Shown here in pieces: positions 7,115-62,442 of a stretch of DNA of 64,000 bases. The position numbers and the translations under genes were made by a program. Source of the DNA: a candidate division WOR-1 bacterium RIFCSPHIGHO2_01_FULL_53_15. Its GTDB lineage: Bacteria > Margulisbacteria > WOR-1 > O2-12-FULL-45-9 > XYB2-FULL-48-7. The notes beneath the pieces were generated by a model. That model searched no databases. It saw only the letters and a list, made by a program, of their open reading frames with translations, and had not been told where the DNA came from. Location of the stretch: NCBI GenBank assembly GCA_001772335.1, contig METM01000029.1:8401-72400 (forward strand). Direction: 5' to 3'. Position 1 is the first letter of the stretch, and every line of letters starts with the position of its first letter.

Positions 7115-8680
7115 TTACATCGATTCCGGAGCCGTAATTCCCAACAATTCTAACACATTGCGCAGAGTGATTCGAGAGGCGTCGACGAGCGTGAGGCGGG
7201 CGGGATTGCCTAGCACGCGGCACTTTTCGTAGAAGTGATGAAAAACGATCGCGAGTTCCTTGCCGTATTCTGTGATTCGGTGGGGATGTCGCAAAACCGC
7301 CGCCTCTTCCACTGACCGCGGCCACGCAAGGAGTCTCATCATCAGCTCTCTCTCCGCCGGTTCAGTTAGAGAGGATAAATCTTCTTGACCCTTGGTACTT
7401 GACCCTTGCCCCTCGCTCTCGGCCTTACGCAAGATGCTGCAGATCCTCGCATGCCCGTACTGGAGGTAATAGACCGGGTTGTCCATCGACTTCTTCTTGG
7501 CCAGCTCAAGGTCGAAATCCAGGTGTGAGTTGACGTCGGTGGCCGAGAAAAAGAAGCGCGTCGCGTCGGAGCCGATCTCGTCGATCACTTCCGCGAGCGA
7601 GACCATTTCACCCGTTCGCTTGCTCATGCGGATAGGCTCGTTGCCGCGGTAAAGGGTGACGAGCTGGCCGATGATTATTTCCAACCTATCGGCCGGCAGC
7701 CCCATCGCCTCGACTGCCGCTTTCAATCTCTTCACATAACCGTGATGGTCGGTCCCCCAAATATTAATGAGCCGCTCATAGCCGCGCGAGAATTTATCGA
7801 GATGATAAGCGAGATCGGCGGCGAAATATGTTGAATTGCCGTCGGCGCGGACGAGGACGCGGTTCTTGTCATCACCCATCTCCTGCGATTTAAACCAGAT
7901 CGCGCCTGCCTCGATGATCGTCTTGTGATTCTTTTCAAGGCGGGAGACCGCTTCCTTTACCTCGCCCTTGGCGTGGAGTTCGCTCTCATTAAAGAAACGA
8001 TCGAAAAGGACGCCGAGTTTGGCGAGAGTCGCTTTCTGCTCGGAAAGGATGTATTCAATGATATCCTCTTTGCTGTCGCCTTTAACTTCCTTGATATACG
8101 CGCCGCCGTAACCGTTTGCCGGGGTCGGTTTCCTCGCCCTGGCCGCCTGGACCGATTCCCAGAGCTTCTCGACCTGGTTGCCGATATTATTGACGTAGAA
8201 CTCGGTTTCGACTTTAAAACCGGCGGCCTTTAACAAGCGGGCAATCACGTCGCCGATCACCGCCCAACGGCCGTGCCCGACATGCAGCGGCCCAGTCGGA
8301 TTAGCCGAAACGTATTCGAGCAGAATTCTTTGACCCTTGCCACTTGACCCATGCCCCCAGCGCTGATCTTGCCTGATTATTTCCGGAATTGACTTTTGGG
8401 TCAGCTCATCTTTGATGAAGAAATTGATGAAGCCGGGCTTGACGATCTCGATTTTGCTGATAACTTCTTCGGCCCCGCCCATTTTGAGCTTCTCGGCGAT
8501 CTCTGCCGCCAGTTCCATGGGGTTGCGGGAAAGTTTCTTAGCGCCGGCAATGGCCAGATTGGTCGCAAAATCGCCGAATTCCTTGCGGGGAGATGGAGTT
8601 ATTTTGTAATCAAGCTGTATCTGGATACCGGCGGCTGACAGCGCTTTCTCGAGAAGCGATTCAATTGTTGACTGAAGCAT
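7115..8680 (-). CDS. argS: arginine--tRNA ligase
   Basis: 521 aa. SANPTGPLHVGHGR (HIGH region), MSKRTG (KMSK-like), C-terminal anticodon-binding domain ending YYLQYGHARICSILRKA. Confidence 0.95.
   Translation of the reverse strand: MLQSTIESLLEKALSAAGIQIQLDYKITPSPRKEFGDFATNLAIAGAKKLSRNPMELAAEIAEKLKMGGAEEVISKIEIVKPGFINFFIKDELTQKSIPEIIRQDQRWGHGSSGKGQRILLEYVSANPTGPLHVGHGRWAVIGDVIARLLKAAGFKVETEFYVNNIGNQVEKLWESVQAARARKPTPANGYGGAYIKEVKGDSKEDIIEYILSEQKATLAKLGVLFDRFFNESELHAKGEVKEAVSRLEKNHKTIIEAGAIWFKSQEMGDDKNRVLVRADGNSTYFAADLAYHLDKFSRGYERLINIWGTDHHGYVKRLKAAVEAMGLPADRLEIIIGQLVTLYRGNEPIRMSKRTGEMVSLAEVIDEIGSDATRFFFSATDVNSHLDFDLELAKKKSMDNPVYYLQYGHARICSILRKAESEGQGSSTKGQEDLSSLTEPAERELMMRLLAWPRSVEEAAVLRHPHRITEYGKELAIVFHHFYEKCRVLGNPARLTLVDASRITLRNVLELLGITAPESM
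7385..7412. repeat. heptamer cassette, TTGACCC family (copy in argS, 3' part)
   Basis: TTGACCC TTGGTAC TTGACCC TTGCCCC on the plus strand. It encodes GQGSSTKGQ in argS. Confidence 0.8.
8330..8357. repeat. heptamer cassette, TTGACCC family (copy in argS, 5' part)
   Basis: TTGACCC TTGCCAC TTGACCC ATGCCCC. It encodes GHGSSGKGQ just before the HIGH region. Confidence 0.8.
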
Positions 8681-20634: not shown

Positions 20635-20856
20635 TCAGGCCTTAAGTACGGCAAGTATAACAGATATTACCATAAAAGTGATCGCCAGTCCCCAGGTAAT
20701 TCGATCCAAACCTTCTTCAAGTCCCTTGGGCGTGCCAAAAAGCTTGGCCGAGCCGCCGATCCCTCCTAATCCTTCCCCCTTTGCCGTATGCAGCAGGACC
20801 GCAATGATCAGAAACAGCGCCGACAAAAACTGGATGATTAACAGTAATCCTCTCAT
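20635..20856 (-). CDS. secG: preprotein translocase subunit SecG
   Basis: MRGLLLIIQFLSALFLIIAVLLHTAKGEGLGGIGGS is a typical SecG. ATG at 20856 with AGGAG SD is preferred over the TTG at 20862. Confidence 0.85.
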   Translation of the reverse strand: MRGLLLIIQFLSALFLIIAVLLHTAKGEGLGGIGGSAKLFGTPKGLEEGLDRITWGLAITFMVISVILAVLKA

Positions 20857-20873
20857 ATTCAACTCCTAAGTTC

Positions 20874-20908
20874 AACGTTCTACTTTCTACTGTCTACTTT
20901 CTAATATA
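20874..20908. repeat. intergenic tandem heptamers (TACTTTC type)
   Basis: AACGTTC TACTTTC TACTGTC TACTTTC TAATATA, between tRNA-Ala and secG. Confidence 0.75.
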
Positions 20909-20990: not shown

Positions 20991-22187
20991 TCATTTATCC
21001 TGTAAACAGGCGATACCGGGCAGGACCTTGCCCTCGACAAATTCCAGCGAGGCGCCGCCGCCGGTTGAAATGTGCGTCATTTTGCCGGCCAGGCCGGCTT
21101 TCTCAACGGCCGCCACCGAATCGCCGCCGCCGATGACCGAGACCGCGCCGCCCTCTGTCGCCTCAGCGACCAGTTTGGCGATCGCGATCGTACCCTTGGA
21201 AAACTTATCGAACTCAAAGACCCCCATCGGCCCGTTCCAGAAGATCGTCTTGGCTTTCTTGATGGCGTGGCCGAACTTTGTGATCGTCTCCGGCCCGATG
21301 TCCATCCCCTGCCAGCCGTCGGGTATCCCCGCCCGGGTGACGATCTGTGAATTGGCATTGGCATCGAACTTATCGGCCACAACATGGTCGATCGGCAGCA
21401 TGATCGTTTTGTCGAGGTCGATCGCCTGCTTGAGCGTTTCTTTGGCCAGCGGGATTCTGTCTTCCTCGACCAGCGAGTTGCCGACGCTGACCTTGCGCGC
21501 CCGGAAAAAAGTGTAAGACATGCCGCCGCCGATAATCAGCGTGTCAACGCGCGGCAGGAGATTTTTGATGACGTCGATCTTACCGGAAACCTTGGCGCCG
21601 CCGAGGATAGCAACAAAGGGCCGGGCCGGGTTCTCCAGCAGCTGCCCCAGGAATTTGATCTCCTTTTCCATGAGGAAACCGGCATAGCCCTTGAGATATC
21701 TGGTCACCCCTTCGGTCGAGGCGTGAGCCCGGTGAGCCGTACCGAAAGCGTCGTTAACATAAACGTCGGCTAAAGAGGCGAGTTTTTTGGCGAAAGCGGG
21801 ATCGTTCTTTTCCTCTTCTTTGTAAAAGCGAACGTTTTCGAGGAGCAGAACTTCCCCGGCCTTTAATTTTGCGACCGTGGCCTCAATCTCCGGCCCGATG
21901 CTGTCTTTAACGTACGCGACTGGTTTCCCTAAAAGTTCCGACAGGCGGCCGGCAACTGGCAACAAACGCAGTTTATCATCCGGTCCTGACTTTGGCCGGC
22001 CCAGGTGGGAAACAAGGATGACCTTTGAGCCCTTATCGAGGAGGTATTTTATGGTCGGCAAAGCCGCGCGAATGCGGGTATCGTCAGTAATTTGCTGTTT
22101 GTCGTCGAGCGGCACATTGAAGTCAACGCGGACCAGAACTTTCCTGCCGCTTAGATCCTTGATATCCTCGATCGTCTGTTTAGCCAT
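20991..22187 (-). CDS. pgk: phosphoglycerate kinase
   Basis: 398 aa. [24 protein letters not shown] and STGGGASLE motifs. Confidence 0.95.
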
Positions 22188-27966: not shown

Positions 27967-28708
27967 GATAATCCTTTATCTCCTTTATAGTCATCTCTTT
28001 ATAATGTAGGATCGAAGCGAGCAAAGCCGCGTCCGCCTTGCCTTTAACGAACGCCTCATAGACATGCTCGTTCTTCCCCGCCCCGCCGGAGGCAATGACC
28101 GGGACTTCGACCGCGTCTGCAATCGCCCGCGTCAACTCCAATTCATAGCCGGCCTTTGTCCCGTCCCGGTCCATGCTCGTCAGGAGTATCTCTCCCGCCC
28201 CGAGCTTAACCGCTTTCTTCGCCCACTCGACCGCATCAAGTCCCGTCGGCGTCCGCCCGCCGTGCGTGTAAACTTCCCAAGTCGTCCCTCGTCCTTCGTC
28301 TTTCGTCCTTCGTTTCGCGTCTATCGCTAAAACCACACACTGGCTCCCAAACTTTTCGGCCCCCTTCTCGATCAGTGATGGGTCGCGCACCGCCGCCGTA
28401 TTGACGGAGATCTTGTCGGCTCCGGCGGAGAGCAATTCTCTCATCGTTTCGACATCATAGATCCCGCCGCCGACGGTGAAAGGGATAAAGATCGTCTCAG
28501 CGACTTTCTTGACGACCTCGAGCATGATATATCTTTTATCGGAAGAAGCGGTAATATCGAGGAACACAAGTTCATCGGCTCCCTCTTTATCATAGACGGC
28601 CGCTAACTCGACCGGGTCGCCCGCGTCCTTGAGATCGACAAATTTCGTCCCCTTGACGACGCGCCCTTCGGTCACGTCAAGGCAGGGAATTATTCTTTTG
28701 GCTAACAT
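27935..28708 (-). CDS. hisF: imidazole glycerol phosphate synthase cyclase subunit HisF-family protein
   Basis: [12 protein letters not shown]...[13 protein letters not shown]...SVNTAAV...ASGGAG. Start at MLAKRI (28708). No other his genes are adjacent. Confidence 0.8.
28281..28322. repeat. tandem heptamers (TTCGTCC type) inside hisF
   Basis: GTCGTCC CTCGTCC TTCGTCT TTCGTCC TTCGTTT CGCGTCT. It encodes [12 protein letters not shown]. Confidence 0.75.
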
Positions 28709-43205: not shown

Positions 43206-45392
43206 CTAAATAAACCACTGTTCCTCTTCATAAGATTCCGTGGGGACCGCGACCGTGATACCCCCGCCCCGCGGCCACCGCTCCAGCTCCTGGCCGTCTT
43301 TGTAGATAACGATGATGAACTCGATCTTCTGGCCGGCTTTCGCGTCTAAAAAAGAGAACGGGATGCCGAGTTCAATTATACGCCCGACGCCGAAGGATTC
43401 AATCTCCTTGATCAGCTCCCATTCATGTTTTTCGTTCAGCCTGTGAAGTTTGAAGATGTAGCGGCCCTCTTCGGCGCCGAACGACAGCTCGGCCTTAGCT
43501 TCGGCCGGCGCGGAAAAAACGACCGCGAACGAATAAGCCCGCGCCTCGTCATTTTTCAGATTGAGATTGACCCCCAGACGGACAAAAAGATCGGTCAGGC
43601 TGAAACCGTAATACAATTCGGCGAGCATCGTTTCGATCTGGTGCATCGCGCCGCGCGCGCGCGCGAGGTCGTAACAGCCGGCTGACAACCATTCGTAATA
43701 ATTGGTGATCTCGCCGTCAAGCGCCGGTTGGATCAGATAGACCGGCTCCTTGACCGGGCGGATAACGCGCGGTTTCTTGATCGGCAGATCGAGCTCCTTC
43801 GGCGGGCGGCGGCCAATGAGGTTGTAAACGTTTTTCAGGTGTTGCCTGAACAGCCCGTCAAAAGCGGCGTCGTTCTCCGACGAGTGGTCGTCGCCGTACC
43901 ACCAGCACCAGTCGGAGCCCTCGGCAATATAGATCTCCTGCCACGCCGTCTTCGTATCGCCGTCCGCGGCGTTCTCTAACGCGAGGCGCGCCTTGTTCAG
44001 GTGGTCCCAGGCGAGATTGTCCTCTTCATGGCCGATCCAGATTTTGAAGTTGTTGTTGATCCACGAACCGGCGAACAGCCGGGAAATCCTTTTCTGCGGC
44101 GGGTTCTCAGCGAGATAGTCGGAGACGCGCGCCGTCCTGATCAGCGGATCGCGCCGGAGGCGGCCGTAGAAGGCATCGAAAAACTCCTTGCCGCCGTCAT
44201 GGTAATATTCCCAGGCGTTCTCGCCGTCGAGGATGACGGAGACGAGATAGCGCCGCCCGTCCTCGGGCAAGCTAACGCGGATATTGTTCAAATGGGAAGT
44301 AAAATCAGTCACCGCGTCCTCGACCCGCCAGCGGTAATAGACAAAACCGATCTGGTCCGAAATAAAATGGTTGCGGAAGATCATGGCAACCGCCTCCCCG
44401 TCATGCTCGATCAGATAGGGCTGGCAGAGCTCGGCCGACGAAAGGGTGCGCGCCTTCATCTCGATTTTATGCAGTGTCCGCTCAAGGACGCCCTCATCGG
44501 TCGCCGCCCACCTGATGCCGGCTTTCCCCATGAGCGTGACGACCTGCTCAGAGACGGAGCCTTCGGCCGGCCACATGCCGCACGGTTTGCGGCCGAAGCG
44601 CTGTTCGTGGAATTCCACCGCGGCCTTTATCTGGGCTTCGGCATCCTTTGGATGGCGGAAGAGCGAACCGGGCAGCTTGACGTAGGGCATCGCTTCTTTG
44701 GCCGCGGCCGAATCGCAGAGCAGAGGCAGGATCGGATGATAGAAAGGCGTCGTCGTTATCTCTATCTGCCCGCGGTCTTCCAGCTCCCTATATTTGGGAA
44801 TGACTTTGCCCATGATCTCCATCTGCTTGTTGATGACGGTCTGCTTGTCATCGCGGGTGAAGTATTTGCCTTTAGCGATCAGCTCCTTGACGGCGGGATC
44901 TTCGTGTTTGGAAATAAAACCGAACCAGGTCAGGTTGAACCAGACCTGGAGGTCAAGGAGCTCCTGCGTTGAAAAGCGCAGGACCACTTTCGCGAGCTCG
45001 GCGTGGGAGACGAAACGGCCGCGCTTGAGCAGGAGGTCCTGATAGCGCGGATAGGGCTTGACCATATTGTCCCAGTTGGCCATAAAGAAATTCTGGAGGA
45101 TAAAGATCCGGTCATCGAACGAGAGGTCGCCCGGCTCTTTGAGCGTCAGGTCAAGAAAGGTATCGGTGACATTGTTATTGACGTAATCTTCGATCTGGAG
45201 GAGCAGCGAGGGAACAAGGTTGAAATTAATTTTGACTTCGGGGAAGCGGTCGAGCACCGCCGCCATGTCATAGTAATCTTTGACCGCGTGCAGGCGCACC
45301 CAGGGCAGGATATATTCGCCCGTCACCAGGTCCTTGTAGAACGGCTGGTGCATGTGCCAGAGAATTGCCAGGGAAACCGGTTGGCTGGTCAT
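43206..45392 (-). CDS. GH57 family protein, long form (amylopullulanase/DUF3536-like)
   Basis: LAILWHMHQPFYKDLVTGEYILPWVRLHAVKDYYDM is the GH57 N-terminus. Start at MTSQP (45392) is preferred; 45440 is possible. Confidence 0.75.
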   Translation of the reverse strand: MTSQPVSLAILWHMHQPFYKDLVTGEYILPWVRLHAVKDYYDMAAVLDRFPEVKINFNLVPSLLLQIEDYVNNNVTDTFLDLTLKEPGDLSFDDRIFILQNFFMANWDNMVKPYPRYQDLLLKRGRFVSHAELAKVVLRFSTQELLDLQVWFNLTWFGFISKHEDPAVKELIAKGKYFTRDDKQTVINKQMEIMGKVIPKYRELEDRGQIEITTTPFYHPILPLLCDSAAAKEAMPYVKLPGSLFRHPKDAEAQIKAAVEFHEQRFGRKPCGMWPAEGSVSEQVVTLMGKAGIRWAATDEGVLERTLHKIEMKARTLSSAELCQPYLIEHDGEAVAMIFRNHFISDQIGFVYYRWRVEDAVTDFTSHLNNIRVSLPEDGRRYLVSVILDGENAWEYYHDGGKEFFDAFYGRLRRDPLIRTARVSDYLAENPPQKRISRLFAGSWINNNFKIWIGHEEDNLAWDHLNKARLALENAADGDTKTAWQEIYIAEGSDWCWWYGDDHSSENDAAFDGLFRQHLKNVYNLIGRRPPKELDLPIKKPRVIRPVKEPVYLIQPALDGEITNYYEWLSAGCYDLARARGAMHQIETMLAELYYGFSLTDLFVRLGVNLNLKNDEARAYSFAVVFSAPAEAKAELSFGAEEGRYIFKLHRLNEKHEWELIKEIESFGVGRIIELGIPFSFLDAKAGQKIEFIIVIYKDGQELERWPRGGGITVAVPTESYEEEQWFI

Positions 45393-45457: not shown

Positions 45458-45580
45458 TTACTTCCTTTCCGACATCGCGATGCCCTTATTGATGACCCAC
45501 ATGGCGAACAAGAGGCCAACGACCGTGATAAAAACTATCGTGCCGCAAATAATCAGCGTGATCAATATCCCTGTATCCAA
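45458..45580 (-). CDS. possible 40-aa single-TM peptide
   Basis: TTG start preceded by GGGGGTG SD (5 nt spacing). (M)DTGILITLIICGTIVFITVVGLLFAMWVINKGIAMSERK. It fits the thyX/GH57 gap. The longer ORF would overlap thyX. Confidence 0.3.
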   Translation of the reverse strand: MDTGILITLIICGTIVFITVVGLLFAMWVINKGIAMSERK

Positions 45581-45600: not shown

Positions 45601-47004
45601 CTATTTCGGCGGCGCTATCTTCGGCAATTCCCCGTAAACCTTCTTGTAGATCTCGAGATACCGATCCTTGCCGCCGATCAGCATCATCGTCAGCGGCATG
45701 ACATCTTTGGCGACTTTCGTCATCTCGGCCGCGAGCTCCTGGATCTCCCACTGGGCGTGCGGGTCTTCGCGTAGTCTTGAGATATGGTAGAGCTCGCGCG
45801 CGTTCGTCGTCATCAGCACGCGCTTCCTGTGCGCTCCGGTCAGGACATATTCGGCCGCCCGCTGGTCGATCTTAGCTATTTCGCGGTAAACAGATTCCGT
45901 CTCTTTGCATATTCCCTTAAATCTTCCCTCATACCCCTTACCCCTTACCTTTTCCGGTATTACTATCCCCAACTCCGGTTCGTATAATTGTGAAGTTATC
46001 GTCGCGACCCGGTGGCGCTTCAACTGCCCGAAACAGCCGGACGACATGACGAGGTCGTAGGTCAGGTGGCTATGCTCGAATTCGCGCAGGGTCGAATCAT
46101 AGAACTCCATGTGCCGGCAGGCCGTCATGACCGCCCTCTCCCGTTCGTGTTTCTTCATATCCTTGGCGACGCGCAGGGAATTCTGGAACGAGATCTGCGA
46201 TGAAGTGTGGAGGAGCGAAGCGACGAGCTTGATATCCGCGTTCCTGGTGTAGTCGAGGAGCGTCGTTCTCCGGCTGACGCGCCGTTTGCGCTCCCATTTC
46301 CCCCGGAAGTAGGCCCGCAGTTCGGGATAGGTTTTCTGGTCAAAGTCATTGGCGGCGGTAAAAAGGATGATCGACGGCGCGATATTGGCCGCAAGCTCAT
46401 ACATCGTCTTGCCGATCTCTCTCACCTCGGCCAGCCCCGACGAAGCGAACCGCCGCACGAGCAGTTCCAGGTTGCGGGCGTTGATCGTCAGTCCGACCTG
46501 GCCTAATGTGCAAAGTGGAGTAATATATCTCGCATCTTCCGGCTCGATCCCCTTTCCGATCATCTCCGCGTAGAACTTGTTCTGCTTTTCAATTATCTCT
46601 CTGAATCTTACCTCATACCCCTTACCCCTTACCTCATCCGGTAAGATGTAACTCCCCTCAAGCTTCTGATACCTCTGCGACTTCTCCGTATAAGAACAGA
46701 GCCGGAACTTTTCTATCTCCTCTAACGCCAAACGCGAAACGTCGATCAGGTCGAAATTAAAAACGGCGTGTTCGGCCACCGAATGGTGGCCCATTTTGAA
46801 GATGATATTGGAATTCGACTTGCGGGCTTTCTCGACCTCGGCGCGGGCCGCCTGGCGCAGTTCGTCGATCGGTCGGGGATCGCGGGAGATGCGAGCATAG
46901 GAGGCAGAGAGGGTCTCGGGGGTCACGTCCTGGCGGTTTTGTCCGGCGGTCAATTCCGCGATGACATCCGCGTCGACGTTATAACCCGCGAGAAGAACCT
47001 TCAT
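45601..47004 (-). CDS. thyX: FAD-dependent thymidylate synthase, tandem two-domain form
   Basis: 467 aa, about twice the usual ThyX size. Domain 1 carries KFRLCSYTEKSQRY (near-complete RHRxxSxxxxSxRY). Domain 2 carries RHRVATITSQLY (a shortened, degenerate version). Confidence 0.85.
   Translation of the reverse strand: MKVLLAGYNVDADVIAELTAGQNRQDVTPETLSASYARISRDPRPIDELRQAARAEVEKARKSNSNIIFKMGHHSVAEHAVFNFDLIDVSRLALEEIEKFRLCSYTEKSQRYQKLEGSYILPDEVRGKGYEVRFREIIEKQNKFYAEMIGKGIEPEDARYITPLCTLGQVGLTINARNLELLVRRFASSGLAEVREIGKTMYELAANIAPSIILFTAANDFDQKTYPELRAYFRGKWERKRRVSRRTTLLDYTRNADIKLVASLLHTSSQISFQNSLRVAKDMKKHERERAVMTACRHMEFYDSTLREFEHSHLTYDLVMSSGCFGQLKRHRVATITSQLYEPELGIVIPEKVRGKGYEGRFKGICKETESVYREIAKIDQRAAEYVLTGAHRKRVLMTTNARELYHISRLREDPHAQWEIQELAAEMTKVAKDVMPLTMMLIGGKDRYLEIYKKVYGELPKIAPPK
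45927..45954. repeat. heptamer cassette, CCCCTTA family (thyX domain 2)
   Basis: CCTCATA CCCCTTA CCCCTTA CCTTTTC. It encodes KVRGKGYEG. Confidence 0.8.
46611..46638. repeat. heptamer cassette, CCCCTTA family (thyX domain 1)
   Basis: CCTCATA CCCCTTA CCCCTTA CCTCATC. It encodes EVRGKGYEV. 26 of 28 nt are identical to the copy at 45927. Confidence 0.8.
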
Positions 47005-48355: not shown

Positions 48356-48469
48356 CCTCATCCGCCGACACAAACCGGCCCCCTTCTCCCGAAGGGAGAA
48401 GGGAAATGCATTTTTGTTTTCCCCTCTCCCGGAGGGAGAGGGGGGAAGGTTTAACGCCAGCGGGTGAGG
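48356..48469. repeat. nested palindromic element, long form (copy C)
   Basis: Arms CCTCATCCGCCG / CAGCGGGTGAGG. Hairpins CCCTTCTCCC-gaa-GGGAGAAGGG and CCCCTCTCCC-gga-GGGAGAGGGG. Spacer motifs ACAAACCG and AGGTTTAA are shared with copy B. Confidence 0.8.
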
Positions 48470-48523: not shown

Positions 48524-48808
48524 ATGATCGAGAAAAAACACGTCGACGGCAAGAACAAGGGCGAAATATTAATATACGCCCTCTCCACCTGCGGCTGGTG
48601 CAGGAAGGCCAAAAATATCCTTAAACAGTTAGGGATCGCTTACGACTATATCGATGTCGACCTCTTGAGTGACGAGAAATCGACAAAGATCGAGAATGAA
48701 GAGGTTAAAAAATGGAACCCGGCCTGCACTTATCCAACGATTGTCATCAACAATCAACGGTCGATCAATAAATTCAACGAAGACAAGATCAGGGAACTTG
48801 GCCAATGA
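48524..48808 (+). CDS. glutaredoxin-like small thiol-disulfide protein
   Basis: 94 aa. [18 protein letters not shown] (CxxC in a glutaredoxin-fold context). 4-nt overlap with the downstream FTRc gene. Confidence 0.75.
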
Positions 48809-49311
48809 GCTTTGAGCCGACCCGGGCGCAGGTCAATGAACTCTATACCCGGTTAAAGAACGAAGCCGAGGGCTCGGGCTACCATCTCCACCCCGATGTG
48901 GAATTCACAAAATGGCTCGTGCGAGGCATTCTGATCAACGAAGCCCGCTACGGCTACTGGAACTGCCCCTGCCGTCGAGCCACCAATAATAAGCAGGCCG
49001 ACCTCGATATCATCTGCCCCTGCGACTACCGCGATCCTGATTTGAACGATTACGATGCTTGCTACTGCGCCCTGTATGTCTCGACAAAGATCTTAAAAGG
49101 AGAAAAAGAAGCTATGCCAATACCGGAAAGAAGGCCTGCGCCGGAACTAAGAGCGCAGAACGCGGAACACAGAGCACAGGAGGGAATTGGTAATTTAAAC
49201 TATCCTGTCTACCGCTGCCGCGTCTGCGGCTATCTCTGCGCCCGGAACGAACCGCCCGAGGTCTGCCCCATCTGCAAGGCCAAAAAAGAGCGGTTCAAAA
49301 GATTTATCTAA
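48805..49311 (+). CDS. ferredoxin:thioredoxin reductase catalytic-subunit domain fused to a C-terminal rubredoxin-like domain
   Basis: CPC-x16-CPC-x8-CYC arrangement (WNCPCRR...IICPCDY...DACYCALY) typical of FTRc. C-terminal YRCRVCGY...VCPICKAKK (Cx2C...Cx2C). Confidence 0.8.
49147..49181. repeat. tandem heptamers (CGCAGAA type) forming the FTRc-rubredoxin linker
   Basis: CTAAGAG CGCAGAA CGCGGAA CACAGAG CACAGGA. It encodes [13 protein letters not shown]. Confidence 0.65.
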
Positions 49312-50750
49312 CCCTTCACAACCACCATCGGCCTTAACCGGACTACCTTTTTGGCCAGGCCAGAATTGTGAACGACGTCGACGACTTCGCGCACATCTTT
49401 GTAGGCCTCCGGCGCTTCTTCGACCAGGCCTTTGCGGCTGGCCGACCTGACCACGATCCCCTGTTTATCAAGATCAGCCATCAGCTCTTTGTAGTTGTAT
49501 TTCCGCAGGGCGGCCGAGCGGCTCAAGCGCCTCCCCGCCCCGTGGCAAACAGAACCCCATGTCTCATTCATCGCCAGTTCGGTCCCTACCATAATATAGG
49601 AATATCTCCCCATATCGCCAGGCACGAGGACCGGATCGCCCGGAAAAGCCCGCGTCGCCCCTTTGCGGTGTACGCATAGCAATTTTTCTATCTCGCTACC
49701 CCCTACCCCCTTAACCTTGTGTTTCTCCATCTTCGCTATGTTATGACAAACATCATAGATCAAGCTGATGCCAAGCTGCTGCGGCGTAGCGCCCATGGCT
49801 TTGGCAAATGATTCCCTCGTCCAGTGCATGATGAGCTGGCGATTGCACCAGGCGAAGTTGGCGGCGGCGCACATGGCCGAGAAATACTGCTTGCCTTCGG
49901 GCGAATTGACCGGCGCGCAGACGAGCTGGCGGTCTGGCAAGTAGATATTGTATTTGGCGACGGCCTTGTGCAGTATATTGATGTAATCGGAGCAGACCTG
50001 GTGGCCAAAGCCGCGCGAACCGGTGTGGACCATGATCGTCACCTGGTCTTTTTGCAGGCCGAAGGCATTAGCGGCCGCTTCATCATATATCTCTTCGACG
50101 AACTGGACTTCGAGAAAGTGATTGCCGGAGCCCAGTGTCCCGACCTGGTCTTTGCCCCGCTCCCTGGCGTGATGCGAAACCGCCGAGGGGTCGGCCCCCG
50201 CGAGCGCCCCGTTCGCTTCAGTGTGCTCTATGTCGTCATTGACCCCATAGCCGTTCTTGACCGCCCACTTCGCCCCTTCGGTCAGCACCTTGTCCATTTC
50301 TTTTTCGGAGAGCGAAATAACGCCGGTCGAGCCAACGCCGGAGGGGACCTCGCGTGCCAGCTCGTTGGCTATGTCATTAATTTTCTTCCGGACTTCATCT
50401 TTATGAAGGTTGGTGCGCAAAACGCGAACGCCGCAATTAATGTCGTAGCCGACACCGCCGGGCGAAATGACCCCACCCTGCTCCGGATCAAACGCCGCCA
50501 CACCGCCAATGGCAAAGCCGTAGCCGAGATGGATATCGGGCATGGCCAGGGAATAACCGACGATCCCCGGCAAGCAAGCGACATTGGCAACCTGGACATG
50601 GGCATTCTCTTTGTAGAGGAGCGGCAGCATCGCTTCGTCGGCGTAGAGGAGACCGTCGGTCCTCATTTCCGGCTTAAAACTGCGGGGGATCAGCCAGCGA
50701 TAATCGTCAACTTTTTGAAAAACCGTCTCCCAGCCGGGCATCAATGGCAC
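49308..50750 (-). CDS. rtcB: RNA-splicing ligase RtcB
   Basis: 480 aa. [43 protein letters not shown] and HRKGAT motifs. Confidence 0.9.
49692..49712. repeat. heptamer cassette related to the CCCCTTA family (in rtcB)
   Basis: CTCGCTA CCCCCTA CCCCCTT. It encodes KGVGGSE. Confidence 0.6.
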
Positions 50751-50761
50751 CTCCGAGGATA

Positions 50762-51490
50762 TTATATACCGAAATCAATGCCAAAACATTCGCTGAACCC
50801 CTTGGCCAGCGCTGTGCTGATCTCGCAAAAGCCAACTTCTCGGCCAAGAACTTCTTCAACGCTCACGGCGTTATGATCAGAATAGGGCTCTTTAAGGACA
50901 GGAAATATTTCTTCCGGCGGCCGGCGGACAAAAATCGATCCCTGCTGGAGCAGAGCCCGCCTGCCCCTCTTCTGCGCGCTGCCGACGATCTTCTTCCCGC
51001 TAACAACGATCTCATATTCTGCAGGGAAAGAGAAGCACAACGAGGTTCTTGATTTTTGATTTGGGCTTTTAGATTTGTTTTGAAGTTTGATGTTTGAGGT
51101 TTGAAGTTCTGCCGCAACCCCGATTCCCGCCAGTCCGGCGACAACTGCCTCCGATATCTTCTTATATGAAGGGACCAGCCCTTTGGGCAGTAACGGATTC
51201 CCAATCTCGGTCACGATCGAGTAAGTCACTTCCGCTTCGTTGTGAAAAACGATGCCGCCGCCGGTCGGCCTTTTCACGATATCCCAGCCTAAGGCCCTAG
51301 CCATTTTCCCATCTATCAATCTATCTTCATTCTGCGAATAACCGAGCGAGATGCAGTTGGGTTGCCAGGAATAAATGCGCAAAGTGGAAGGGATGGCGCC
51401 ACGTTCAAGGTCGTTGAAAAGCCCGAGATCGATTCCCATATTGGCCTGGCCGCGGAGGCAAGGGATTGTGATCAGCCGCCAGTTTTCCAC
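50762..51490 (-). CDS. lipoate-protein ligase / octanoyltransferase family protein (BPL_LplA_LipB domain)
   Basis: [28 protein letters not shown] and [11 protein letters not shown] motifs. GTG start at 51490 (VENWRLI) is suggested; ATG 51439 is possible. The longer ORF overlaps gcvPB. Confidence 0.7.
51046..51108. repeat. 63-nt heptamer array, TGAAGTT family (in lipoate ligase-like gene)
   Basis: TTCTTGA TTTTTGA TTTGGGC TTTTAGA TTTGTTT TGAAGTT TGATGTT TGAGGTT TGAAGTT. It encodes [21 protein letters not shown]. Confidence 0.8.
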
Positions 51491-52884
51491 GATAGGACCG
51501 GTTCGCGCGCAGCTTTGGTTTCGTCCAATCTTCTGACAGGAGTATCGTGCGGAGCCGACTTCACCAGCTCCGGATCGGTCTCGCACTCTTTAGCGATCTT
51601 GATCATCGCCTCACAAAACGCGTCGAGCGTTTCCTGTGATTCACTCTCCGTCGGCTCGATCATCAGCGATTCCTCAACGATGAGGGGGAAGTAGATCGTC
51701 GGCGGGTGAAAACCATAGTCGATCAGGCGTTTGGCGATATCGAGCGCCTTGATACCGTATTTCTCCTTCTGCCATTTGGCCGAGATGACGAACTCATGCT
51801 GGCATTGCCTGTCATAAGGCAAATAATAATGTTCTTTGAGCTTGTTCATCATGTAATTGGCGTTCTCGACCGCTTTTTCCGATACTTTCTTCAGCCCCTC
51901 CGCCCCCAGCGAAAGAATATAGGCATAGGCCTTGATGATGACTCCAATGTTGCCGTGGAAGGAGTGGACTCTGCCTATGGACTTATCGTAATGCGTAACG
52001 CGTAACGCGTAATGCGAATTTTCTTTGACCACCCGGGGAATCGGCAAAAACGGCTCAAGTTTCTTGTTGACGCCGACCGGACCCGAGCCCGGGCCGCCGC
52101 CGCCGTGCGGTGTTGAAAAAGTTTTGTGGAGGTTAAAATGAGCGACATCAAAGCCGAGATCGGCCGGCCGACAGATGCCAAGGTTGGCATTGGCATTGGC
52201 GCCGTCATAATAGAGGAGGCCGCCAGATTTGTGGACGATCTCCGCGACCTCGAGAATATGCTCATCGAACAGCCCAAGCGTGTTCGGATTGGTCAGCATT
52301 AAACCGGCCGTGTCTTCTCCCACCGCTTTTTTCAGTTCATCAACATTGATATTGCCCCGGCCGTTCGACTTGATGACGACCGGCGTAAAGCCAACCATCG
52401 CAACCGACGCCGGATTTGTTCCATGCGATGAATCGGGGATCACTACCTTGACCCTTGCTGCTTGACCCATGTCCCTGTGATAAGCTTTCATCATCATCAG
52501 CGCCGTCAGCTCGCCGTGAGCTCCGGCCGCCGGCTGGAGCGTGAACGCGTCGAAACCGAAGATCGCGCACATGTATTTTTCAAAGTTATAAAGCAGTTCC
52601 AGTATCCCCTGGCTCTGCGCCGCAGCCTGCAAGGGGTGCGCGCCGGCAAAGCCGGGCAGGCGCGCGATATCCTCGTTGACCTTCGGGTTATATTTCATCG
52701 TGCAGGAGCCGAGCGGATAAAAATGTGTGTCGACCGAAAAATTCTTCTGCGAAAGCCGCGTAAAATGGCGGATAACATCAAGCTCGGTGCGCTCCGGCAA
52801 GCTCAACTCTTTTCTTAAGAGGTCCGGCGGTATCAATTCTTCAAGTTTTTCGACCGGTACGTCAAACTCTGGCAGAGAGACCAT
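51472..52884 (-). CDS. gcvPB: glycine dehydrogenase (decarboxylating) subunit 2
   Basis: 470 aa. [14 protein letters not shown] and [16 protein letters not shown] (PLP-Lys region). Confidence 0.9.
51987..52014. repeat. tandem heptamers (CGTAACG type) inside gcvPB
   Basis: CGTAATG CGTAACG CGTAACG CGTAATG. It encodes HYALRVTHY. Confidence 0.75.
52448..52475. repeat. heptamer cassette, TTGACCC family (copy in gcvPB, different reading frame)
   Basis: TTGACCC TTGCTGC TTGACCC ATGTCCC. It is read as DMGQAARVK, shifted by one nt relative to the argS/trpE copies. Confidence 0.8.
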
Positions 52885-60791: not shown

Positions 60792-61901
60792 TCAGGCAGT
60801 CGTGTAATATTTGCCTGGCAGCTGGCGGACCGCTTTCTTGATCTCCAGCATCATTAAGAGCGAAGATGCCTGGTGGACCGGCAGGCCGGCCTCAGCGGCA
60901 ACACTGTCCAAATGTTTCGATTCGTCGGTCAATGCATCATAGATCTTCGCTTCTTCCGGCGTCAGGTTCGCCGGTCTGGTTTTTGGCGTTTGTGACTTGT
61001 TAGTTGTTTTGAAGTTTGATGTTTGAAGTTGGATGTTTAATTCCTCGAGAACGTCTTCAACCGTTTCGACAAGCTTCGCTCCTTGCTTGATCAGCCAGTG
61101 CGGCCCTTTTGATTGCTCGAGGCCCACGTTGCCCGGCACGGCAAAAACTTCCCGCCCCTGCTCCAGCGCTGCCTTGGCTGTGATCATCGCCCCGCTGTCG
61201 TAATGGCCTTCAACGACGATGACACCGAGAGAAAGCCCTGATATTATCCTGTTCCGCCGGGGGAAATTCCCTTTTTCTCCCCGCGCACCCATGGGAAATT
61301 CAGAGACCAGCGCGCCGCGGCTCTCGATCTCGCGGGACATCTCTTTATTATGCGGCGGATAAATGACATCCACCCCGCAGCCAAAGACCGCGATCGTTCG
61401 TCCATTCGCTTCGAGTGCGCCTTGATGGGCCGCCGTATCAATACCCGAGGCCAGACCCGAGACGATCGTCATGCCCAAAGCCGCCAGTTCTCCCGCGAAC
61501 TTCTTGGCCGTTTCCAGGCCGTAACGGGAAGCTCGCCTTGTGCCAACAATGGCTAACGACCTGCCGTCCGAAGGCAGAAGATCGCCTTTAACATAAAGCA
61601 CGGGCGGCGGATCATAAATATTTTTTAGGTTTTTGGGATAATTTTTGTCGGCCAGCGTGAGAATTGAGACCCTTTGCTTTTCGACCTCAGCCAGTTCGGC
61701 GGCAGGATCGAGCTGACCACGGCTTTGGATAAAGGCGGCAGCCGCCGTTCTGTTTATGCCTTCGACCGCGAAAATATCTTTTTCATCCGCTCGCCAAACC
61801 GCTTCAATTGATTCGAACCTGCCCCAGAGTTTATTAATTGTGACGGCGCCAAGGCCGGGGATCTTGTTTATCGCCAGCCAGTATTTCAGATCTTCATTCA
61901 T
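60792..61901 (-). CDS. dprA: DNA-processing protein DprA (Smf)
   Basis: NKIPGLGAVTINKL (SAM/HhH-like), the Rossmann core IVSGLASGIDTAAH...GVIVVEG, and a C-terminal winged helix. Start at MNEDLKY (61901). Confidence 0.9.
   Translation of the reverse strand: MNEDLKYWLAINKIPGLGAVTINKLWGRFESIEAVWRADEKDIFAVEGINRTAAAAFIQSRGQLDPAAELAEVEKQRVSILTLADKNYPKNLKNIYDPPPVLYVKGDLLPSDGRSLAIVGTRRASRYGLETAKKFAGELAALGMTIVSGLASGIDTAAHQGALEANGRTIAVFGCGVDVIYPPHNKEMSREIESRGALVSEFPMGARGEKGNFPRRNRIISGLSLGVIVVEGHYDSGAMITAKAALEQGREVFAVPGNVGLEQSKGPHWLIKQGAKLVETVEDVLEELNIQLQTSNFKTTNKSQTPKTRPANLTPEEAKIYDALTDESKHLDSVAAEAGLPVHQASSLLMMLEIKKAVRQLPGKYYTTA
60975..61037. repeat. heptamer array, TGAAGTT family (in the dprA linker)
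   Basis: ...GTTGTTT TGAAGTT TGATGTT TGAAGTT GGATGTT. A 23-nt block (ttgttttgaagtttgatgtttga) is identical to 51076-51098. It encodes LQTSNFKTTNKSQTPKTRP. Confidence 0.8.
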
Positions 61902-62442
61902 GCAGCGCCGATTTGAAAACCGTCTCCTGCTCCGCCTCGGCGGCCGGCAGAGGCGGCAGTGAGTCAACGTTCTCGATGCCGAAGTGACGGAGGAAGTTTT
62001 CGCTCGTCGCGTAAAGATAAGGCCGGCCGACCGTTTCGCTGCGCCCCGCTTCGCGCGCCAGTTTCTTGGCGACTAAACTCTCGATCACCCAGCCGGAATC
62101 AACGCCGCGCAGGCGCTCGATCTCCAGGCGCGTGACCGGCTGTTTGTAAGCTATTATGGCTAAGGTTTCAAGCGCCTGCGGCGAGAGCCGCGTCTCTTCT
62201 TTCGGATGAAGGATCTTCTCGACATAGTCGACATTGCCGGGGTTCGTCCCCATCAGATAGCCGCCGGCAACCTTGACCACCGTGATCCCCTTGTTTTGAG
62301 ATTCCGCCGCGAGCTCTTCCATCACCGGCAAGAGGACCTCGTTGGATAATCCGGCGACTTCACCCAATTCATCGATTGACAGCGGCTTGCGCGCGACAAA
62401 TAAGATCGACTCCAGAATGCTTTTAACTAGCGCCGTTTCCAT
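61894..62442 (-). CDS. scpB: segregation and condensation protein B
   Basis: 182 aa. ILESILFVARKPLSIDEL, LETLAIIAYKQPVTRLEIERLRGV and RPYLYATS motifs. Confidence 0.9.
   Translation of the reverse strand: METALVKSILESILFVARKPLSIDELGEVAGLSNEVLLPVMEELAAESQNKGITVVKVAGGYLMGTNPGNVDYVEKILHPKEETRLSPQALETLAIIAYKQPVTRLEIERLRGVDSGWVIESLVAKKLAREAGRSETVGRPYLYATSENFLRHFGIENVDSLPPLPAAEAEQETVFKSALHE

Follow-up and report, generated by a model that had tools for sequence, protein, structure and literature searches.

The stretch of DNA analysed here, referred to as the window, comprises 64,000 nucleotides (nt) of the candidate division WOR-1 bacterium RIFCSPHIGHO2_01_FULL_53_15, and the element under study is a short cassette that is present twice in its tandem thyX gene, which codes for a double thymidylate synthase (ThyX). 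The gene lies on the minus strand as an open reading frame (ORF) of 467 amino acids (aa) with two stretches matching Pfam Thy1 (E=1e-64), and both half 1 (~aa 1-235) and half 2 (~aa 236-467) were matched by PDB ThyX chains. The protein is identical to P0001, the ThyX of this bacterium, which belongs to the Saganbacteria/Margulisbacteria group, and the two-domain architecture is found in hundreds of species from several phyla. The same thyX sequence was present in independent NCBI, ENA and JGI assemblies, and the orthologues behave coherently. The features of the gene are as follows.

45601..47004, minus strand: tandem two-domain thyX gene
46604..46643, minus strand: half-1 cassette of the donor type, coding strand TACCGGATGAGGTAAGGGGTAAGGGGTATGAGGTAAGATT, encoding (L)PDEVRGKGYEVRF, a heptamer array of ~3.9 units
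45920..45959, minus strand: half-2 cassette, regarded as the converted acceptor, coding strand TACCGGAAAAGGTAAGGGGTAAGGGGTATGAGGGAAGATT, encoding (I)PEKVRGKGYEGRF

In a preliminary description of the window, two copies of a repeat were reported at 45927-45954 (CCTCATACCCCTTACCCCTTACCTTTTC) and 46611-46638 (CCTCATACCCCTTACCCCTTACCTCATC). Positions and sequences of both were borne out, with 26/28 nt identical, and a repeat search extended the pair to 40 nt, of which 37 are identical. Their spacing of 684 nt (228 codons) keeps the copies in register and in frame. The coding strand reads CCG GAT GAG GTA AGG GGT AAG GGG TAT GAG GTA AGA TTC in half 1 and CCG GAA AAG GTA AGG GGT AAG GGG TAT GAG GGA AGA TTT in half 2, and VRGKGYE is encoded by both. 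The exact 14-mer CCCCTTACCCCTTA occurs in the window at these two thyX sites only, and when up to two mismatches were allowed, 5 matches were found against 0.27 expected.

It had been argued that an old internal duplication cannot leave about 40 nearly identical nt in halves that are otherwise diverged, and the comparison of nucleotide and protein identity supports this. Within the cassette (aa 122-134 vs 350-362), 10/13 residues, 35/39 nt and 11/13 third positions are identical, whereas the half-1/half-2 alignment outside the cassette has identities of 37/133 aa, 181/399 nt (45%) and 48/133 third positions (36%). The halves are thus not similar throughout, and a recent whole-domain duplication is ruled out by the nt and third-position identity along the alignment. 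Given identical amino acids, the probability of seven identical core codons is 0.002, and the codons used in the cassette are rare in the genome (GTA, 5% of Val; AGG, 14% and AGA, 9% of Arg; GGT, 11% of Gly), therefore the similarity of the cassettes lies at the DNA level and not at the protein level.

Both cassettes have a period of seven. The coding strand of half 1 can be written as GTAAGGG GTAAGGG GTATGAG GTAAGAT, for which Tandem Repeats Finder (TRF) gave a period-7 array of 3.9 copies with 85% matches at 46607-46633; for the half-2 cassette it gave 2.6 perfect copies of the same period. Lag-7 matches were 17/20 in half 1 and 16/20 in half 2 (P<=1e-5, with the amino acids fixed and codons drawn from window usage), indicating that the cassette is a heptanucleotide tandem array, as the word repeat in the preliminary description had implied. 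No terminal inverted repeats or target duplications were seen at the thyX cassettes in the repeat search. The gene is 1404 nt long in the window, in the strain variant L002 and in the orthologue P0003, and these three close sequences differ in thyX by substitutions only. The copy number is therefore fixed among the closest sequences, and the cassette is not behaving as a phase-variation locus. An internal out-of-frame start (AAGGGG-8 nt-ATG) was also considered and rejected; the frames end after 2 and 18 codons and are not conserved.

The unit itself varies among relatives. The half-2 array of P0003 reads (A)CGGGGG ACGGGGG ACGAGGG ACGA, and the array of many relatives reads CGAGGGA CGAAGGA CGAGGGA CGA, where (CGARGGA)3 translates to RGTKDEGR. 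Because 7 shares no factor with 3, a single distinct heptapeptide results from three units, and (GGGACGA)3 translates exactly to GTRDEGR, the commonest loop motif of the clade, so the peptide follows from the repeat and not the reverse. The differences between the two arrays of P0003 are periodic (C>A at positions 4, 11 and 25, C>T at 18 in the same phase, and G>T at 9 and 16), indicating that the units change in concert. In the thyX genes of the close clade, 9 arrays were found against 0.2 expected, and in those of distant phyla 1 against 0.9. A 4-5-fold excess of arrays was observed in the DNA flanking thyX in both the close clade and the distant phyla, which agrees with the over-representation of heptamers reported for bacterial simple repeats (PMC4679880, PMC4692102).

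The origin of the near-identity becomes apparent from the nearest species-level orthologue, P0003, which comes from the Saganbacteria metagenome-assembled genome (MAG) DeMMO3_43 (L001/L003) and has 85% nt identity. Its half 1 reads GAA GAG GTA AGG GGT AAG GGG TAT GAG GGA AGA TTT and its half 2 reads CCA AAA ATA CGG GGG ACG GGG GAC GAG GGA CGA TTT. Over codons 351-361, half 2 of the window differs from half 2 of P0003 at 10/33 nt, and 10/10 of these differences match the half-1 state; from half 1 of P0003 it differs at 1/33 nt, and the 30-nt core is identical at 30/30 positions. The acceptor, half 2, is thus closer to the paralogous half than to the orthologous half, and the donor, half 1, is of the same type in the window and in P0003 and has remained unchanged, both as expected for gene conversion. 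In the more distant relatives P0014, P0015, P0023 and P0029 the half-2 segment starts with CGR GGG ACN, and the half-2 state of P0003 is therefore ancestral and that of the window derived.

These observations are most simply read as a one-way transfer, in which ~33-45 nt of half 1 were copied into half 2 once the lineage had split from the nearest sequenced relative, with two later changes in half 1 of the window (GGA>GTA and TTT>TTC). Of the two origins suggested in the preliminary description, gene conversion fits this orthologue comparison; two independent insertions do not, since the loop encoded by the cassette has the same length in ThyX homologues with and without an array and the changes are substitutions only.

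The transfer was not a single occurrence. When 161 homologous genes were scanned for the best ungapped nt match between halves, the background was 11-16, and the outliers were the window (31), L005 (28; 30/31 nt), L002 (25) and L001/L003 (19), all at the same in-register site. L005 is P0024, a Margulisiibacteriota MAG, in which the matching segment AGATCCGAGGGACGAGGGACGAAGGACGATT encodes IRGTRDEGRF in both halves. In P0023, codons 125-134 and 353-362 have 3 differences over the 30-nt core, and across nine genomes the half-1/half-2 distance was 7.3 within a genome versus 10.1 between genomes (permutation p=0.003). Two lineages besides that of the window thus show homogenisation, with another sequence, and the loops have been homogenised repeatedly and independently. 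Donor, acceptor, direction, approximate tract and recurrence of the thyX transfer are all given by these comparisons.

In the protein, the cassette was aligned by phmmer to the 'PSPERLEGYK' loop of T. maritima ThyX, right after the S-x-R-Y motif and ahead of a long helix. Compared with the cassette loop, that of Thermotoga has 9 additional residues, therefore the thyX cassette is not an insertion, which answers the question whether RGKGYE is one relative to single-domain ThyX structures. In an AlphaFold2 model (predicted local distance difference test (pLDDT) 79.5, predicted template modelling score (pTM) 0.76), residues 125-131 are predicted to form a coil before helix 131-150, and residues 353-359 a short turn before helix 359-377. 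In each half, the cassette codes at the equivalent place for the turn that connects the 'YI(L/I)P' strand to the long helix after it. A ThyX with an insertion of exactly 7 aa in the half-1 loop was observed in P0044.

When the best 120 homologues were aligned (mean column identity 71%), both loop segments were among the most variable parts of ThyX, with variants including RGTKDEGRF, RSPKFEVRF, RNSIYVTRY, KAAGLEKEF and KKAGMEKEF, and neither segment was among the invariant columns of the family alignment. RGKGYE was restricted to the window's own cluster and, in the nearest relative, to half 1 only. RGKGYE-like residues are thus not conserved in ThyX generally, and a conserved functional motif is ruled out by this alignment together with the PDB alignment.

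Two further properties of the tandem protein were observed. Half 1 carries K-F-R-L-C-S ... S-Q-R-Y (aa 99-112), which has kept S-x-R-Y but has lost two residues of the RHR motif, its first Arg and its His; half 2 carries R-H-R-V-A-T ... S-Q-L-Y (aa 329-341), in which RHR is kept and the Arg of S-x-R-Y is lost. Both of these complementary patterns are invariant in the family alignment. Because the halves degenerate in complementary ways, their sequences suggest that the tandem ThyX may be a fused pseudo-dimer with only some active sites intact. In addition, the linker between the halves is a third array hot spot of the ThyX family (P0057-P0120, aa ~230-239), with six AATTTCC units in L154 (2265-2306; TRISNFQFPISNVQS), further linker arrays at 2195-2216 in both L018 and L089, and linker peptides such as QGTGNRE, LQVASCK and DWGLGTG.

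Next to thyX, a small ORF of 40 aa encoding a hydrophobic peptide (LDTGILITLIICGTIVFITVVGLLFAMWVINKGIAMSERK, TTG start) was found at 45458-45580 on the minus strand, between thyX and a gene for a glycoside hydrolase of family GH57. Its sequence and position are conserved in L001, L163, L164, L166, L167 and L170, and its product is probably a small membrane protein, of a kind that may be overlooked in annotation. In L002, the GH57 gene is without 68 nt (window 44104-44171), which leads to a frameshift, and it is called there as two pieces (433 + 146 aa) versus 744 aa in the window.

Heptamer arrays were then scanned in the 64-kb window and in ~0.7 Mb of thyX-centred loci. In the window, 7 arrays of at least 3 units (>=85% lag-7 identity) were found against 0.45 expected from dinucleotide shuffles, and 8 four-unit arrays against 0.07 expected from triplet shuffles; at lags 5, 8 and 10 no excess over expectation was observed. 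Of the 11 arrays listed, 10 lie inside ORFs, and none has more than 4.6 units. Those outside thyX are as follows.

49692..49712, minus strand: loop array of rtcB, (AGGGGGT)x2.3, coding strand AAGGGGGTAGGGGGTAGCGAG, encoding KGVGGSE (TRF)
28282..28313, minus strand: loop array of hisF, (ACGAAGG)x4.6, with the unit of thyX cassettes in other genomes (TRF and lag-7 scan)
51079..51108, minus strand: array (CTTCAAA)x4.3 in a lipoate-protein-ligase-like gene (lplA-like; ORF 50762..51586), identified from the Pfam tags of the L171 orthologue
61008..61038, minus strand: array (CTTCAAA)x4.4, encoding QLQTSNFK, in a DprA-like gene (ORF 60792..61967) named by eye
51986..52018, minus strand: array (CGTTACG)x4.3 in the gene for glycine dehydrogenase subunit 2 (gcvPB-like), the peptide including HYALRVTHY (TRF and lag-7 scan)
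7384..7413, minus strand: weaker GGGTCAA-type array (69% matches), encoding EGQGSSTKGQE, in an ArgS-like gene (ORF 7115..8680) named by eye
49150..49179, plus strand: array AGAGCGCAGAACGCGGAACACAGAGCACAG in ORF 48805..49311 (+), with 16/21 lag-7 matches
20870..20903, no strand: heptamer array GTTCAACGTTCTACTTTCTACTGTCTACTTTCTA outside long ORFs, between ORFs 20635..20862 and 20991..22187

Arrays of this kind lie in segments coding for surface loops (in one case a linker) of housekeeping genes, in this bacterium and its relatives, and they are enriched in the loop-coding parts of other genes both in the genome and in the clade. The loop with the hisF array is 6 aa longer than in HisF-LUCA 4evz, and among 120 HisF homologues this loop is highly indel-polymorphic, with array-encoded peptides common. 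The gcvPB array aligns to a variable segment of 1wyt_B with one additional aa. The lipoate-ligase-like and DprA-like arrays, which lie in unrelated genes, both encode LQTSN[IF]K and have 23 exact nt in common (TCAAACATCAAACTTCAAAACAA), including the same variant unit, which hints at copying between loci.

Among the side observations on these arrays, similar Lys/Ser/Pro-rich linkers follow the lipoate-ligase-like and DprA-like arrays (TTNKSQTPKT in the latter), and the unit of the array at 49150-49179 is close to the one behind QNTEHRTQ in the P0120 ThyX linker. A strand bias of the arrays was considered, the first ones all lying in minus-strand genes, but the minus strand carries ~80% of the window's coding DNA and the bias is not significant. 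An intergenic hairpin-like element at 48365-48451 gave weak sub-threshold Rfam matches to miRNA/sRNA models and is almost certainly no more than a stem-loop; within the element, GAAGGGA is perfectly duplicated at 48391-48404 (GAAGGGA GAAGGGA).

The repeat in rtcB had been described as related to the thyX cassette. The sequence CTCGCTACCCCCTACCCCCTT is present at 49692-49712, encodes KGVGGSE and is a real two-unit heptamer repeat; it is not demonstrably a copy from thyX. It matches the thyX 14-mer at 12/14 bases, and matches with 2 mismatches are expected ~0.27 times per window. The array is situated in a hairpin loop whose length exceeds that in P. horikoshii RtcB and most homologues by 5 aa. 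At the same place and with the same length, the 91%-identical rtcB orthologue P0122 reads GTAACTG GCAACCG GCAACTG GCAACTG, and P0124 reads GGGGGCC AGGGACC AGGGGCT GGGGACC at the same site, so that three genomes have three different units with one periodicity. As the orthologous rtcB sites carry unrelated units, the rtcB array is an independent member of the same class, and descent from the thyX cassette was rejected, the 2-mismatch match being at chance level.

A comparable pattern was observed in a gene encoding a metallo-beta-lactamase (MBL)-fold hydrolase upstream of thyX in three Margulisbacteria, where arrays occupy the same codons with different units (L016 1115-1141, GGTCAGT; L098 1057-1088, GTCATTT; L013 1142-1162, TAGTTGT) and encode IGQWSVVI, IGHLSFVI and LVGSCKLL, the periodicity being kept and the sequence changed. 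The repeat unit turns over at orthologous sites, all units together.

At the protein level, stretches of seven residues for which a perfect (unit)x3 is an exact coding sequence were counted against shuffles. ThyX homologues contained 35 such stretches vs 2 in shuffled sequences, all at the half-1 loop, the half-2 loop or the inter-domain linker; HisF homologues contained 32 vs 0 and RtcB homologues 3 vs 0, in each family all at one loop. Examples of unit-encoded peptides are RRTKDEG and VKGQGSR; the HisF loop peptides include VKGQGS(R), and VTGHESRV is one of the near-perfect relatives. Some unit classes recur, GGGTCAA (encoding VKGQGS(R) in HisF and RtcB homologues) in HisF, RtcB and the ArgS-like gene of the window, ACGAACC in HisF and ThyX, and CGAAGGA in hisF of the window and thyX of other genomes. 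Sharing of units between families is only marginally above chance when the universe is restricted to stop-free, T-poor hydrophilic units, and the recurrence of unit classes was therefore rejected as proof of copying in trans and kept as a lead.

Taken together, the thyX cassette is quite probably a heptanucleotide array of 3-4 units in a variable loop, whose near-identity in the two halves arose by non-reciprocal copying from half 1 to half 2. Slipped-strand mispairing and repair would make and homogenise the arrays, and short-tract gene conversion or a template switch would carry ~33-45 nt of the half-1 array into the half-2 loop. The existing arrays and the conserved flanks (CCG... / GAGGGA.GATTT) of both loops may serve as microhomology, which would let one loop template the repair or replication of the other, and selection would keep only outcomes with a frame-neutral total length that are compatible with the loop. 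No peptide or RNA function is required by the data.

Several points weigh against this explanation. The converted tract is slightly mosaic, codon 352 being AAG, which is neither GAG of the donor nor the ancestral AAA. Classical recombination would have had very little homology to use in the flanks, and the mechanism, whether RecA-type conversion, replication template switching or slippage repair, is inferred rather than observed. Simple slippage does not easily account for a 7-nt repeat rewriting a loop at constant length, since one step of +/-7 nt would shift the reading frame of a gene that appears to be essential. A contribution from selection favouring similar loops in a pseudo-symmetric enzyme is also possible, and the enrichment of arrays was measured on the one 64-kb window and the ~0.7 Mb of thyX-centred loci.

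The strain variant L002 (ENA assembly) also belongs here. It differs from the window at 3/4859 aligned bases, all within 37 nt in or beside the half-2 cassette (window 45937, 45947 and 45973; L002 gene nt 1068, 1058 and 1032), with the effects V>A, K>N and one synonymous change. None of the three matches half 1 or the ancestral half 2, and such a cluster of private changes in the acceptor copy is not accounted for by conversion alone. Possible causes are a site of locally raised mutation, a second event or a mixture of strains in the assembly. Adenine-specific mutagenesis of the kind made by diversity-generating retroelements (DGR) was rejected, as the three substitutions (G>A, T>C and G>T) are not specific to adenine.

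A broader process was also considered, in which a templated mechanism typical of the Saganbacteria/Margulisbacteria lineage, perhaps also of cyanobacterial relatives with short tandemly repeated repetitive (STRR) sequences, writes patches of 7-nt periodicity into the loop-coding DNA of enzymes from a limited set of units (CGAAGGA, GGGTCAA, ACGAACC, CTTCAAA and others) and copies them within a gene, as in thyX, and between unrelated genes, as in the lplA-like and dprA-like genes. This is held to be unlikely. If it were true, templated patch-writing would be a natural mechanism of loop rewriting or loop diversification and not plain slippage with occasional conversion.

There is a small chance that the G-rich or purine-rich array is kept as a nucleic-acid element, whether a G-quadruplex (G4), a Shine-Dalgarno-like ribosome pause, positioned alike in each domain and aiding its folding, or a protein binding site. 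Synonymous sites are conserved and rare codons are used, and the same RGTKDEGRF codons are found in L085, L164, L170 and L005, whose ThyX proteins are each only ~60-70% identical to that of the window; it is because of this conservation of CGARGGA synonymous sites across distant genomes that the possibility is kept at low probability. UAAGGGG and GAAGGA look Shine-Dalgarno-like, four-unit G-rich heptamer arrays of Xanthomonas and Nostoc form G4 in vitro (PMC4692102), and ViennaRNA predicts a G4 in half 2 of the window and in half 2 of P0003. However, a G4 was predicted in only 2/7 cassettes, fold z-scores ranged from -1.8 to +0.6, and no match to the cassettes was found among Rfam families. 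The unit differs between lineages (GTAAGGG vs CGAGGGA), other loci use units that are not G-rich (CTTCAAA, CGTTACG, GGCAACT), and most ThyX family members have no array at these loops.

It is improbable, to a like degree, that the two thyX copies stem from an external common source, through two separate events in which a tiny mobile or templated element that targets loop-coding DNA was inserted or overwrote the site. The thyX length is unchanged relative to array-free homologues, although the hisF and rtcB arrays do coincide with insertions of 6 and 5 aa. In the window, the agreement of half 2 with half 1 extends to the flanking codons (GAA ... GGA AGA TTT), which are precisely those of half 1 of P0003, and this places the nearest source 684 nt away in the same gene; the sole further copy of the unit in the window is the rtcB array with its 2 mismatches, and terminal inverted repeats or target duplications were not seen at thyX. 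What speaks for such an element comes from other loci, namely the 23 exact nt common to the lplA-like and dprA-like arrays in unrelated genes, the hisF array of the window with the unit of other genomes' thyX cassettes, and the GGGTCAA-class unit in HisF, RtcB and the argS-like gene, but this sharing of unit classes is only marginally above chance among T-poor units.

Parallel evolution in place, through slippage bias or protein-level selection for identical pseudo-symmetric loops and with no physical copying, is very unlikely. Arrays do change their unit in concert at each locus (half 1 vs half 2 of P0003, rtcB and the MBL-fold gene), and the loops occupy pseudo-equivalent positions of a fused dimer. 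Nevertheless, all ten changes (10/10) are to the donor nucleotide, including synonymous sites and rare codons, for which the probability is ~(1/3)^10 if they were independent, and the match to half 1 of another species is 30/30.

Hardly any credit is left to an ordinary conserved ThyX motif, a recent whole-domain duplication or an assembly artefact: T. maritima ThyX does have R-LEGY-K at the aligned position and the genome is metagenome-assembled, but the motif is missing from nearly all homologues, the halves are 45% identical in nt outside the cassette, and the NCBI, ENA and JGI assemblies give the same sequence with coherent orthologues. These three explanations and parallel evolution are effectively excluded.

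Copying from half 1 to half 2 of a heptamer array has implications beyond thyX. Heptamer repeats have so far been treated as intergenic curiosities, and here they lie inside essential enzymes, where peptides such as RGTKDEGR, VKGQGSR and LQTSNFK are dictated by a DNA repeat read in all three frames. The thyX case is a concrete and datable short-tract conversion with almost no flanking homology. Heptapeptides encodable by (unit)x3 provide a simple protein signature for surveying metagenomes, and annotators as well as structural and evolutionary analyses should be cautious, because 'conserved' short motifs common to domains or unrelated proteins in these phyla may be repeat-driven. Saganbacteria/Margulisbacteria are regarded as sister to Cyanobacteria, and if the arrays share their origin with the cyanobacterial STRR repeats, the long-open question of STRR spread becomes testable. 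In a literature search of incomplete coverage, no description was found of in-frame heptamer arrays in Saganbacteria/Margulisbacteria or of conversion between tandem ThyX halves, nor anything relevant on tandem or fused ThyX.

Short-tract conversion between paralogues is known from the concerted evolution of tuf and from the pilE/pilS mini-cassettes. The thyX transfer resembles both in being non-reciprocal, with the donor unchanged and the acceptor nearer to its paralogue, in its tract of tens of nt and in its recurrence in several lineages. It is unlike them in that donor and acceptor are otherwise only ~45% identical in nt, flanking homology is almost absent and the exchanged piece is a micro-repeat; and unlike pilE/pilS, there is no sign that the copying serves surface-antigen variation.

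Cryptic simplicity, reportedly described by Tautz, Trick and Dover in 1986 as coding sequence generated by slippage, is also similar, as the peptide is dictated by a short DNA repeat and not by peptide selection, and the units change in concert. However, it concerns mainly eukaryotic genes and units that are multiples of three, whereas the present unit of 7 nt passes through all three reading frames, and the genomes are bacterial and compact. In-frame miniature insertions are represented by the Rickettsia palindromic elements (RPE), and small dispersed repeats (SDR) of cyanobacteria are said to have been described by Elhai in 2008. As in RPE and SDR, small repeated DNA is tolerated in loops of conserved proteins and the same element occurs in unrelated genes; but RPE and SDR measure 21-150 nt, are palindromes or form hairpins, and lengthen the sequence in every case, whereas the thyX cassette is tandem, adds no length and has no inverted repeat.

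Among heptanucleotide loci, neuO and the hmw1A promoter are phase-variable (PMC13001214, PMC8262952) and likewise have a 7-nt tandem repeat in or beside a gene. They switch by copy number, whereas in thyX, a gene for a core enzyme, the copy number is fixed and only substitutions separate the strain variants.

The closest relatives of the arrays are the heptanucleotide simple-sequence repeats (SSRs). Heptanucleotide repeats are the most abundant class of long simple repeats in most bacterial genomes (PMC4679880; PMC4692102), and polymerase slippage has been proposed as their origin (PMC4679880, citing Mrazek 2007). The cyanobacterial STRR, the GGGNATC repeats of Xanthomonas and Nostoc and the TAACTGA repeats of Beggiatoaceae and Cyanobacteria are alike in having a 7-nt unit arranged head to tail, and in both the known SSRs and the window the loci are dispersed, many per genome, with few units recurring. 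A preference for four units is clear in the known repeats (PMC4692102); in the window the longer arrays have 3.7-4.6 units by TRF, and rtcB and the perfect half-2 core of thyX have 2.3-2.6. The known heptamer SSRs are mostly intergenic and under-represented in genes (PMC4692102) and reach up to dozens of units, whereas the arrays of the window lie inside conserved housekeeping genes, are translated in frame and comprise 2-4.6 units. Published heptamer units include CCCCAGT, TTGGTCA, CAACAGT, GGGNATC and TAACTGA (PMC4692102, PMC4679880 and other literature), and none of the units GTAAGGG, CGAAGGA/ACGAAGG, CTTCAAA, CGTTACG and AGGGGGT of the window equals one of these. Arrays of the window class also differ from the known SSRs in that their units turn over at orthologous sites. 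The thyX cassette works as a heptanucleotide SSR combined with short-tract gene conversion, and it has the defining features of both.

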